From Gammaproteobacteria bacterium (GTDB lineage Bacteria > Pseudomonadota > Gammaproteobacteria > Natronospirales > DASSBR01), in NCBI GenBank assembly GCA_035698525.1, contig DASSBR010000045.1:2290-66289 (forward strand): DNA of 64,000 bases, in the 5' to 3' direction. The translations under genes were made by a program, and so were the position numbers. The notes beneath the pieces are model-generated. The model was not told the origin of the DNA, made no database searches, and saw only the letters and a list, made by a program, of their open reading frames with translations. Numbering within the stretch: the stretch's first letter is position 1; each line of letters begins with the position of its first letter. This document shows positions 24,722 through 27,094 of the stretch, in pieces.

Positions 24722-27094
24722 ATGCTGCAAACGATCCGCTATCTGGTTTTCCGCCGCCCATGGCGACAGGAGCGTCCGACGGTTGTGCAATTTCCCGTTA
24801 ACGACATCTGCAATTCCAAGTGCCAGATGTGCAACATCTGGCAGCAAAAACTGGACCGGCAGGTAACGCCGGAAGAAGCACGCCGCCTTTTCTCCGATCC
24901 GCTCTTCTCGTCGGTTCGGGCAGTGGGAATGAACGGAGGCGAACCAACCCTCAGAGCCGATCTGCCTGATCTGGCCGATGCACTGTTCGACAGTATGCCG
25001 GCTTTGCGTTACATCTCACTCATTACCAATGGATTGCGTCCTGACGTGGCGATTGAGCGCATTGATGCCGTCGCGGATCGCGTCATGAGCCATGGAGGAA
25101 CCCTGGATGTCATGGTCTCCCTCGACGGCGTCGGGGCGTTGCATGATCGCGTTCGTGGCGTTCCAGGGAATTTCGACGATGCGGTGCGCGTTCTGGACCA
25201 TCTTTTAGAAAAACGGGACCGAGTAAAAGTGCGAGTCGGCTGCACGGTCATACACGACAACGTGCACGGCCTTCATGAGTTACTTGACTTCTGCATACGC
25301 CGCGATGTCTACATAAAATTCCGGCTGGGGGTTCCTCACCGCCGCCTCTACAATGTTACGCCAGTACCCAAAACGATTGGGAAAAGAACATGGCTGGATA
25401 CTCAGCCATTCCACTTGACCGAAAAACAGAGGTGGCACTTCGCACAATTTCTGCATGGCCTTATTCGCAGCTACGAGCCTTCGTTACAGCAACGATATTT
25501 CTATGAATCACTTTCGAATCAGGTTTTGCACGGTTCAGCACGCCGGGCCGGGTGCGACTGGCAACATCGCGGCGTCACGATCACGTCCCGCGGCGAACTA
25601 ATGTTTTGCGCCGTTCAAAGCGATGTCCTGGGCGATGTATCTGCTGGCGGCGCGGAGCGACTTTACTATGGGTCAAGGAACCACCTGGACGATATAATCA
25701 AAACAAAATGCGCAGGCTGTGCTCATGATTATGTTGGCCCTCCGGGCGGTGCGCAGCAATGGAAGTTGCTCGCCGATGCTTTGATGATAGAGTCGGGCAT
25801 CACGCTACCCCGCATCCGGAATATGCCGCTTTTCCCGGTTGTCATGCGCGCTCGGAATCTGCTCCGTACGCGCGCATTTGTTCGGGAACGTCATCAACTT
25901 GCACGGGTATCGCCCCGGCGAGCACAACCTGCCTTGAGCCCAAACGGGGCTATTCTTATCTGCGGTTGGTACGGCACAGAAACGCTCGGAGACAAGGCGA
26001 TACTTGCTTCGATCGTAGAAAATATCCGCCGAATGACGGAACAGCGCCCGATCAAGATCATTTCGCTTCAACCCCCTGTTACGCGGTTAACGCTCGCGGA
26101 AATACCAGAGATTGGAAATGCTGAGGTCATAAGCACTACCGATGCGCTGCGAGATATTGGATCGTCCAGCGCCATAATTTTCGGCGGAGGGCCGCTGATG
26201 GCCGTACGGGAACTCGCGGAAATGGAGGCGCTGTTCCTGCGTGCAAAGACTCTCAGGATACCCCGCGTCATTGCCGGTTGTGGTGTGGGTCCGGTCGGGG
26301 GGCGAGCGTATAGGGCGGCAATCAGATCCATATTGTCCGCGGCTTCATCACGGATTTTTCGAGATCGACAGTCGTTGCAGGCGGCTGCCTCACTAGGCGT
26401 GGATGTAGCACACGATCACGTTGCGGAAGACCCGGCTTTTGGGTGGGTATCGGGCTACCGATCCGCTAATCTCGTTGCGTCCGCCGGCCGTCCTCCAACC
26501 GTTGCCCTTGGCCTGCGAGACTGGCCGTACCTGCAATATGCTCCTGGCATGAGCGTTAAGAAAGCGGTGTCCATCAAGGAGGCGCTGGAAACGGCTGTTA
26601 TTTCGGCACTGGAAAGGCTGCTGACGGAGATCCCGAATCTTCGCATCCTTCCCATTCCATTCTGTACCCACGATTCTGGCGGCGACGACAGGCTGGTTTA
26701 CTGGAAAATGTCGCGGCGCTCGACAAAGCTTCGCGAGGCGCTGGATACATCAACCATTGGATGTGATCTAGGTGCGTCTGAATACATCCGCCGGATGGGA
26801 ACTGTTGATGCGTGTTTGGCGATGCGATTCCACTCAATTGTATTTTCGCTTGCTCTGGGGAAACCGCCCGTCGTGCTCGACTACACTTTGGGACAAGGAA
26901 AGTCGCACTATCTCAGTCAACGTTACAAGCTACCCACATTCCCGGTGGATCGCGTCGATGCTGATGCCCTCGCCACACACTTGCTAGCGGCGATGAACTC
27001 AGACTTCCAGAGCACCAGTCGGGACGAACTACAGTTTGATAATGCCTTTGCGTCCGCCTGGCGGTCCTGTTTCGGTCATGGAACGGGATTGTGA
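24722..27094 (+). CDS. Fusion: radical SAM (with partial SPASM/twitch Cys motif) plus polysaccharide pyruvyl transferase domain
   Basis: The N-terminus has NDICNSKCQMCNIW (CX3CX2C) and GGEPTL, then later cysteines C-DWQHRGVTITSRGELMF-C ... C-AG-C. The C-terminal ~400 aa (ILICGWYGTETLGDKAILASI..., IIFGGGPLM, RFHSIVFSLALGKPPVVLDY) match the PS_pyruv_trans/CsaB-like family. Confidence 0.7.
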   Translation: MLQTIRYLVFRRPWRQERPTVVQFPVNDICNSKCQMCNIWQQKLDRQVTPEEARRLFSDPLFSSVRAVGMNGGEPTLRADLPDLADALFDSMPALRYISLITNGLRPDVAIERIDAVADRVMSHGGTLDVMVSLDGVGALHDRVRGVPGNFDDAVRVLDHLLEKRDRVKVRVGCTVIHDNVHGLHELLDFCIRRDVYIKFRLGVPHRRLYNVTPVPKTIGKRTWLDTQPFHLTEKQRWHFAQFLHGLIRSYEPSLQQRYFYESLSNQVLHGSARRAGCDWQHRGVTITSRGELMFCAVQSDVLGDVSAGGAERLYYGSRNHLDDIIKTKCAGCAHDYVGPPGGAQQWKLLADALMIESGITLPRIRNMPLFPVVMRARNLLRTRAFVRERHQLARVSPRRAQPALSPNGAILICGWYGTETLGDKAILASIVENIRRMTEQRPIKIISLQPPVTRLTLAEIPEIGNAEVISTTDALRDIGSSSAIIFGGGPLMAVRELAEMEALFLRAKTLRIPRVIAGCGVGPVGGRAYRAAIRSILSAASSRIFRDRQSLQAAASLGVDVAHDHVAEDPAFGWVSGYRSANLVASAGRPPTVALGLRDWPYLQYAPGMSVKKAVSIKEALETAVISALERLLTEIPNLRILPIPFCTHDSGGDDRLVYWKMSRRSTKLREALDTSTIGCDLGASEYIRRMGTVDACLAMRFHSIVFSLALGKPPVVLDYTLGQGKSHYLSQRYKLPTFPVDRVDADALATHLLAAMNSDFQSTSRDELQFDNAFASAWRSCFGHGTGL

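Follow-up and report, generated by a model that had tools for sequence, protein, structure and literature searches.

Why should a polysaccharide pyruvyl transferase share one polypeptide with a radical S-adenosylmethionine (SAM) enzyme, given that we know of no pyruvyl transferase that requires redox chemistry? The question is raised by a gene in a 64,000-nucleotide stretch of a gammaproteobacterial contig (DASSBR010000045.1, positions 2,290 to 66,289; assembly GCA_035698525.1, GTDB lineage Natronospirales), which is called the window here and in whose coordinates all positions are given; features lie on the forward strand unless stated otherwise. An open reading frame (ORF) at 24722..27094 encodes a 790-aa protein that consists of a radical SAM/twitch domain, a helical linker and a pyruvyl transferase domain. 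An initial annotation, made from the sequence alone, had described this fusion and had suggested that it modifies one sugar in two steps, with the radical reaction coming first and pyruvylation second. A two-step modification of one sugar is plausible, but the evidence argues against that order. With somewhat better than even confidence, we propose that the fusion is a bifunctional glycan-tailoring enzyme paired with the glycosyltransferase family 4 (GT4) enzyme encoded downstream, and that its two halves would act in succession on the same residue: ketal-pyruvylation from phosphoenolpyruvate (PEP), then radical modification.

The fusion is one intact gene

The first matter to settle is whether an assembly or frameshift artefact has joined two neighbouring genes. 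The ORF begins with ATG and its translation contains no internal stop, in agreement with the single 790-aa frame initially annotated, and the identical ORF with the same neighbours recurs on five contigs that derive from no fewer than three independent sequencing runs, which answers the concern about the assembly voiced at that time. A stop or frameshift had been feared at 25750-25900, i.e. in the zone of the basic helical linker between the domains (aa 343-394; 25748..25903). Here the window has an open frame, as do three independent run assemblies and almost all of 83 related loci, and AlphaFold2 (AF2) models the linker helices confidently (aa 343-358, 362-366 and 371-394). The CX3CX2C motif of the N-terminal half and the GWYG motif of the C-terminal half share one uninterrupted frame in nearly all of these 83 fetched loci, and the distance between the two motifs is 336-391 residues in 217 database homologues.

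Homology searches give the same answer. Among 5.8 billion proteins searched, more than 120 clusters at 90% identity are full length (~780-810 aa), all with both Pfam domains, the best non-self match being 61% identical. When 1.84 billion representatives at 50% identity were scanned exhaustively with HMMER, 343 proteins reached E ≤ 1e-30, and most of the best 150 (E ≤ 3e-64) are long and align over both domains. The artefact explanation can draw on frameshifts in a few related loci, and we found nothing else that speaks for it. In Shewanella sp. HN-41 (L041:10001-12264) the frame is broken directly past the Cys motif; in Symbiopectobacterium (L066:10001-12304) three frameshifts are spread over the gene; and in one metagenome-assembled genome (MAG; L081:9965-12165) a frameshift lies between the two domains. 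These three copies are evidently pseudogenes or sequencing errors. On the strength of the independent assemblies, the full-length homologues and the open frame in related loci, we reject the artefact, whose probability we regard as negligible; the radical SAM-pyruvyl transferase fusion is real and is one gene.

The start codon deserves comment. On the five contigs the protein is called automatically as 769 aa, from an internal GTG (V22; position 24785) preceded by AGGAG. We prefer the ATG at 24722, because the family conserves residues upstream of V22, namely P13, W14, P19 and V21. In many database homologues the call starts at a methionine corresponding to M36, which lies within CQMC, and the first two cluster cysteines are thereby lost; intact fusion enzymes can thus look as if they lacked a cluster.

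The N-terminal half is a radical SAM domain with a twitch region

The radical SAM core (aa 26-190; 24797..25291) matches Pfam PF04055 with 56.5 bits against a gathering cutoff of 29.5. Conservation was read from alignments of 26, 117 and 32 members, the 32 being more divergent. C30, C34 and C37 of the CX3CX2C motif (CNSKCQMC, aa 30-37; 24809-24832) are invariant in 117/117 and 32/32 homologues, and G72-G73-E74 of GGEPTL (aa 72-77; 24935-24952) are likewise invariant in the 117 and in the 32 diverse homologues; on these two motifs the domain had first been recognized. H141, R145, T175, N180, R201, R208 and R274 are invariant as well, and the four arginines among them (R145, R201, R208 and R274) would fit an anionic substrate, bearing a diphosphate and/or a carboxylate.

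The core is followed by a twitch-type auxiliary-cluster region (aa 274-340; 25541..25741) with C278, C296, C330, C333, H335, D336 and Y337. The pairs C278-x17-C296 and C330-x2-C333, together with H335 and D336, are invariant in 117/117 and 32/32 homologues. This Cys pattern had been likened to a partial SPASM/twitch domain, and the profile comparison agrees: the N-domain profile aligns to residues 10-321 of anSME, i.e. through the first half of its SPASM domain, with C296 following the hairpin and C330-x2-C333 falling on the SPASM-domain CxxC. The AF2 model places strands at 284-287 and 292-294 and helices at 311-328 in this region. A full SPASM domain, in contrast, was rejected: PF13186 gave no match in the fusion at E ≤ 1, and only four conserved cysteines lie downstream of the core, short of the 7-Cys SPASM motif. 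Of the three Pfam models named in the initial annotation, PF04055 and PF04230 thus pass their curated cutoffs and PF13186 does not match. We assign the auxiliary domain as a twitch domain with, as predicted from its cysteines, a single fully Cys-ligated auxiliary cluster; the spacing of the four cysteines resembles that of BtrN.

Searches of known structures with the N-domain profile gave SkfB (E 5e-20), BlsE (1e-11) and anSME (9e-10). Foldseek searches with the N-terminal half of the model returned BlsE, SkfB, anSME, MoaA, SuiB, CteB, viperin-like enzymes, EpeE and DesII, and the 13 top-ranked PDB matches were all radical SAM enzymes (E 1e-10 to 1e-7). Membership of the named radical SAM equivalogs was rejected, every NCBIfam score being far under its cutoff (BlsE, 39.8 against 400; NirJ, 62.2 against 515; PTO1314, 75.7 against 306; N_Twi_rSAM, 54.1 against 170). 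Also rejected was C174 as a family-wide H-atom donor, which would have been an epimerase signature: the divergent clade has T, S or G at this position.

The C-terminal half is a pyruvyl transferase domain

The polysaccharide pyruvyl transferase domain (aa 410-727; 25949..26902) is supported by Pfam and by alignment with WcaK. On aa 423-721, PF04230 scores 74.2 bits (cutoff 25.3), and the match extends over positions 3-278 of the 280 in the profile. Residues 415-427 (GWYGTETLGDKAI), GGGPLM (aa 488-493) and RFHS (aa 702-705), on which the early assignment had relied, are all present, and the domain as a whole retains GWYGTETLGD, GGGP, GCGVGP, R547-D548, D655-D656, R702-x-H704 and DYT..GK. Its alignment with Escherichia coli WcaK (23% identity over 288 residues, E 9e-12) keeps the motifs in register, and the invariant R702-F-H704 (26825-26833) aligns with R-L-H of WcaK. 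The assignment of a CsaB/WcaK-type pyruvyl transferase domain holds. Membership of the CsaB equivalog (TIGR03609) was rejected, with 77.9 bits against a trusted cutoff of 213.1.

The C-domain as a single sequence had no match in the PDB, its profile matched only Pvg1p, and weakly (5ax7, E 1.4), and Foldseek placed the C-terminal half among GT-B-like UDP-GlcNAc 2-epimerases. The R-x-H triplet does correspond to R337, L338 and H339 of Pvg1p, which together with R217 are proposed from modelling to contact PEP, and the survey of the pyruvyl transferase family in the same review took only proteins of 250-600 aa, so that the fusion was excluded (PMC6801904).

The AF2 model of the whole protein, built from 117 sequences, has a pLDDT of 91.8 and a pTM of 0.92; the latter suggests a defined arrangement of the two domains relative to each other. 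The protein has no signal peptide or transmembrane segment and is most likely soluble and cytoplasmic.

A widespread family without a characterized member

With one genome per species (185,579 species), a relative of the fusion is found in ~117 species, and the family spans more than 10 phyla with a single fixed domain order. Together with the 343 representatives described above, this answers the question of how widespread the fusion is. Cultured carriers include Yersinia alsatica, Aeromonas bestiarum, A. rivuli, Lelliottia wanjuensis, Zooshikella harenae, Plasticicumulans acidivorans, Solimonas soli, Azohydromonas lata, Kistimonas scapharcae and Marinicrinis sediminis. Other carriers are cyanobacteria (Microcystis, Mastigocoleus and Richelia), Chloroflexota, Desulfobacterota, Opitutaceae, Phycisphaeraceae, Bacteroidota and Bacillota, with Verrucomicrobiota and Planctomycetota among the phyla represented, and one archaeal MAG (Methanosarcinales) carries a relative. 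No DNA-level homologue was found on 72,556 plasmids, where only partial matches of the NirJ type appeared.

In databases the homologues are named only "polysaccharide pyruvyl transferase family protein" or "radical SAM protein". No NCBIfam model reaches its cutoff on the fusion, no curated family covers the protein, and our literature searches found no paper describing a radical SAM-pyruvyl transferase fusion, in line with the annotator's earlier remark that no characterized example was known to it. The sequence data describe a large and conserved but uncharacterized family that appears to be bifunctional; its two halves belong to known superfamilies, and its chemistry could be new.

A GT4 partner in Wzx-type glycan clusters

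At 75 non-redundant loci, every ORF lying up to 7 kb from the fusion was assigned to a cluster of related sequences. Directly downstream and on the same strand, 64 of the 75 loci carry a GT4 glycosyltransferase of one family (GT4b), with a median gap of 3 bp; in the window this partner, recognized by Pfam, occupies 27091..28326, and its GTG start codon overlaps the stop codon of the fusion (GTGA). A Wzx family lies directly upstream of the fusion in 38/75 loci, and a family of GT2 glycosyltransferases (GT2b; 28382-29158 in the window, Pfam) is present in 48/75. In the window, Pfam identifies the Wzx-type (MOP) flippase at 22510..23811 and, between it and the fusion, a PhyH-family Fe(II)/2-oxoglutarate dioxygenase at 23834..24670; the latter is a facultative partner, with homologues (31-59% identity) directly upstream of the fusion at 11 loci. 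Pairs of GDP-mannose dehydratase and epimerase (28 loci), ManC (11), sulfotransferases (8) and a NUDIX hydrolase (6) are among the other neighbours. All fusion contexts examined are Wzx-type glycan clusters.

The link to GT4 extends to protein fusion. At least five giant proteins (P0245, P0239, P0246, P0258 and P0262; 1234-2388 aa) contain the Radical_SAM, PS_pyruv_trans and Glycos_transf_1 domains in one chain and in that order, a count to which P0241 (3783 aa), outside the domain scan, does not contribute. These giant fusions often add TPR, methyltransferase or second glycosyltransferase domains, and the GT4 part of P0262 is 32% identical to GT4b of the window over its full length (E 5e-49). 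The single chains and the operon linkage together argue that radical SAM, pyruvyl transferase and GT4 activities form one functional unit; and the gene context indicates that the fusion works with one GT4, before flipping by Wzx. GT4b was also considered as a WcaL orthologue and rejected, the match being a generic GT4 match over only 53 aa (E 5e-6).

One of these loci belongs to a culturable type strain, A. bestiarum CECT 4227 (L069:6351-21028), where a Wzx/Wzy-type, O-antigen-like cluster downstream of acrB-oprM contains the fusion, the GT4 partner, an EpsG-like polymerase and gmd-fcl-gmm-manC.

Decayed radical SAM domains and the order of the two steps

In a locus of Thermosynechococcaceae (L064:9872-12139) and in at least six representatives (P0155, P0158, P0163, P0187, P0194 and P0248), the fusion has lost CX3CX2C, GGE and some or all of the twitch cysteines, with every pyruvyl transferase motif unchanged; among these decayed variants, L064 still has its GT4 neighbour. 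A decayed radical SAM domain beside an intact pyruvyl transferase domain argues that pyruvyl transfer does not depend on radical SAM catalysis, and hence that the radical step either follows pyruvylation or is independent of it.

This bears directly on the order suggested by the initial annotation, in which the radical SAM half would first oxidize, epimerize, dehydrate or decarboxylate the sugar and so create the diol geometry required by the pyruvyl transferase. The nearest solved relatives of the N-terminal half, which include the sugar decarboxylase BlsE and twitch enzymes, lend some weight to such a scheme, as does the four-Cys twitch cluster, which is typical of dehydrogenase-type chemistry (BtrN and anSME). 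If the radical step prepared the acceptor, however, the pyruvyl transferase should have decayed as well, whereas in the decayed lineages the pyruvyl transferase domain is conserved in full and the GT4 partner is still present. A preparatory radical step is therefore disfavoured, and we regard the radical-first order as quite improbable.

A second explanation is that the two activities are independent, acting on different residues or at different steps of one glycan, and are fused for co-localization at the membrane assembly complex; in a variant of this explanation, the radical SAM domain would be mainly a structural or redox-sensing scaffold. The dead variants keep the N-terminal domain as a folded module, pointing to an additional, structural role for it, and the addition of GT4 and TPR domains in the giant proteins yields scaffold-like assemblies. 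Against independence, the seven cluster cysteines and the SAM motif are invariant in 117 close and 32 diverse homologues, which indicates catalysis, and only ~6 of 240 long sequences have a degenerate radical SAM domain. The fixed domain order and the narrow range of motif spacing across more than 10 phyla, as well as the pTM of the model, which suggests a rigid pair, also speak for a tighter coupling of the two halves. We consider independence unlikely.

A glycan island between pilA and pilB

The fusion lies within a 14-kb stretch (~17.5-31.5 kb) of 53-58% GC, compared with 60-69% in its flanks, and searches for tRNA or Rfam elements at the borders of this island found none. At the near border is the gene of a type IVa major pilin, PilA (17024..17518; Pfam Pilin plus N_methyl). 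It is followed by a 675-aa polytopic membrane protein (17600..19627), a GT2 (19666-20535), a GT4 (20539-21720), a SAM methyltransferase (21653-22513), the Wzx flippase, the PhyH protein, the fusion with its GT4 partner, GT2b, an AT3 acyltransferase (29116-30330) and a further GT4 (30340-31464). The far border is formed by pilB (31582-33303), pilC (33314-34537), pilD (34534-35406) and coaE (35410-36006). Apart from the 675-aa protein, these genes were identified by Pfam. The region 16952-36006 thus places five glycosyltransferases, Wzx, the methyltransferase, the AT3 acyltransferase and the PhyH protein between pilA and pilB-pilC-pilD-coaE. The methyltransferase ORF overlaps the preceding GT4 by 68 nt, and its true start is probably further downstream.

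The mature N-terminus of PilA reads FTLIELM..., and its C-terminus, ...YLPANCRS, carries a terminal Ser past the disulfide loop, a feature that we take to resemble the glycosylated C-terminal Ser of the group I pilin of Pseudomonas aeruginosa 1244. The mechanical start of this ORF (TTG at 16952) lies upstream of the likely ATG at 17024. In P. aeruginosa, pilins are glycosylated by TfpO/PilO (group I pilin) or by TfpW (group IV pilin). From its position, the 675-aa protein is a candidate for a TfpW-like enzyme of this kind, and possibly for a new family of pilin glycosyl- or oligosaccharyl-transferases. It has no Pfam or NCBIfam match, Wzy_C included; an F-D-D motif in its first loop is invariant, its C-terminus is TPR-like, and its AF2 model is all-helical (pLDDT 85.6). 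Homologues are named "protein O-mannosyl-transferase" or "TPR repeat protein" by JGI. In every locus examined (the contig of P0002, L008, L013, L088 and L089), relatives of this protein adjoin pilin genes on the 3' side, and the glycan genes that come next vary from locus to locus: the fusion is among them in some and missing in others. The island is probably a pilin-glycosylation cassette, in which the fusion-GT4 pair would be one exchangeable module.

Two ORFs lie just outside the island. An AT3-SGNH (OafA-type) acyltransferase at 36015-38066 on the reverse strand, between coaE and zapD, may be a glycan O-acylase; and a 217-aa ORF at 15706-16359, upstream of pilA, has no family match.

Proposed mechanism

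We propose that a repeat unit or oligosaccharide is assembled on undecaprenyl diphosphate at the inner membrane face, and that the GT4 partner would attach a sugar to this lipid-linked oligosaccharide. With PEP as donor, the C-terminal domain of the fusion would then pyruvylate the newly added sugar at two of its hydroxyls, and so make a 1-carboxyethylidene ketal in the manner of WcaK and CsaB. The N-terminal domain would reductively cleave SAM at the [4Fe-4S] cluster of the CX3CX2C motif, and the resulting 5'-deoxyadenosyl radical would attack this same residue, by then anionic, and remove a hydrogen atom from its sugar ring or its pyruvate-derived group, with the fully Cys-ligated twitch cluster serving in electron transfer. 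Wzx would flip the completed unit, and in the window the membrane protein encoded beside pilA would probably attach the glycan to PilA, in its C-terminal serine region. The lipid-linked substrate, the shared target residue, the pyruvylation-first order and the pilin as acceptor are parts of this scheme that we infer. For the radical step on the ring, oxidation, epimerization, dehydration or decarboxylation are candidates by analogy with BtrN, HygY, AprD4 and BlsE, whose chemistry is of these types.

A more specific version of the same proposal is that the radical step acts on the PEP-derived C3 unit itself. In one form, an enolpyruvyl ether or ketal would be attacked by a sugar-centred radical, and the new C-C bond would give a bicyclic or branched nine-carbon sugar acid; in another, radical fragmentation would open the ketal to a 1-carboxyethyl (lactyl) ether plus a keto-sugar. 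Chemistry of this general kind has precedents: in the formation of octosyl acid (nikkomycin and polyoxin), PEP transfer by NikO/PolA is followed by the radical SAM step of NikJ/PolH, MqnE attacks an enolpyruvyl group, and TYW1 uses pyruvate. The near-obligate fusion and a radical step that appears to come after pyruvylation speak for such a reaction, and the invariant arginines of the radical SAM domain would suit a carboxylate. Moreover, glycans of cyanobacteria, enterobacteria and Lachnospiraceae contain lactyl ethers (PMC7685785), and the gene is found in these groups. On the other hand, none of 5,426 complete E. coli genomes, lactyl-bearing O-serogroups included, showed a DNA-level homologue in searches with Lelliottia and Yersinia queries by blastn, an insensitive method; the canonical pyruvyl transferase motifs argue for an ordinary ketal product; and no conserved ketoreductase neighbour was found among the 75 loci. 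We retain the C3-unit chemistry as a tentative sub-case of the proposal, possible but well short of probable.

Returning to ketal-pyruvylation followed by radical modification of the same residue, several observations weigh against this explanation and temper our confidence in it. Since C174 is not conserved in the divergent clade, no specific type of radical reaction is favoured. The variants with a dead radical SAM domain would equally fit two fully independent activities. In the island, no polymerase, chain-length regulator or initiating phosphoglycosyl transferase was detected, which makes the lipid-linked substrate an assumption; the same absences fit a single oligosaccharide rather than a polymer. 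As for the transfer to pilin, Foldseek gave the 675-aa protein only weak matches to PglB/STT3 (TMq 0.30, E ~0.1) and to TPR proteins. Finally, our literature searches found no biochemical characterization of any member of the fusion family and no published glycan structure tied to a carrier, including in the literature on A. bestiarum and on sulfated Vibrio capsules.

Discussion

Pyruvate ketals influence how capsules, O-antigens, exopolysaccharides and S-layer anchors are charged, recognized as antigens and bound by proteins. A radical SAM-pyruvyl transferase fusion that is widespread and tied to one GT4 implies that a common modification of sugars has gone unrecognized. If the radical step acts on the C3 unit, the fusion would provide a route to the carboxyethyl-type or higher-carbon sugars of bacterial and cyanobacterial glycans, and its product in the window would sit on type IV pili. 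Beyond what had been read from the single ORF, the present analysis identifies a large conserved family, its tie to a specific GT4 and its location in a pilA-pilB glycan island, which is a candidate for a complex pilin-glycosylation system beyond those of Pseudomonas and Neisseria. A defined trio of GT4, pyruvyl transferase and radical SAM activities, members that provide natural radical SAM-dead controls, and culturable hosts make the chemistry directly testable.

In the C-terminal 380 aa, the fusion shares PF04230 with WcaK (colanic acid of E. coli) and CsaB (S-layer-anchoring polymer), and its GGGP, G-x-G-P, RD, DDR and R-x-H motifs are in register with WcaK; unlike any characterized pyruvyl transferase, it carries an extra 400-aa radical SAM/twitch domain. 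With BlsE (7vob), BtrN, anSME (4k36), SkfB (6efn) and MoaA it shares CX3CX2C, GGE, a partial TIM barrel and a C-terminal hairpin-plus-helix region bearing Cys ligands; it differs in being joined to a transferase, and it has no full 7-Cys SPASM motif. At the level of gene order, wzxC-wcaK-wcaL of the colanic acid cluster in E. coli K-12 has the same succession of flippase, pyruvyl transferase and GT4 as the window, and the same 4-bp stop/start overlap, whereas in the window the PhyH gene sits between Wzx and the fusion.

NikO/PolA and NikJ/PolH resemble the proposed scheme in that a PEP-derived C3 unit is placed on a sugar hydroxyl before a radical SAM enzyme acts; they differ in being separate proteins, in the MurA fold of NikO, which does not belong to PF04230, and in their nucleotide substrates. 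The TfpO and TfpW loci of P. aeruginosa resemble the window in having the gene of a large polytopic membrane protein directly after pilA, in a pilin with a Ser at its end, close behind the disulfide loop, and in the TPR-like C-terminal part of the membrane protein, whereas in the window a dedicated 12-kb glycan-assembly island separates the membrane-protein gene from pilB.

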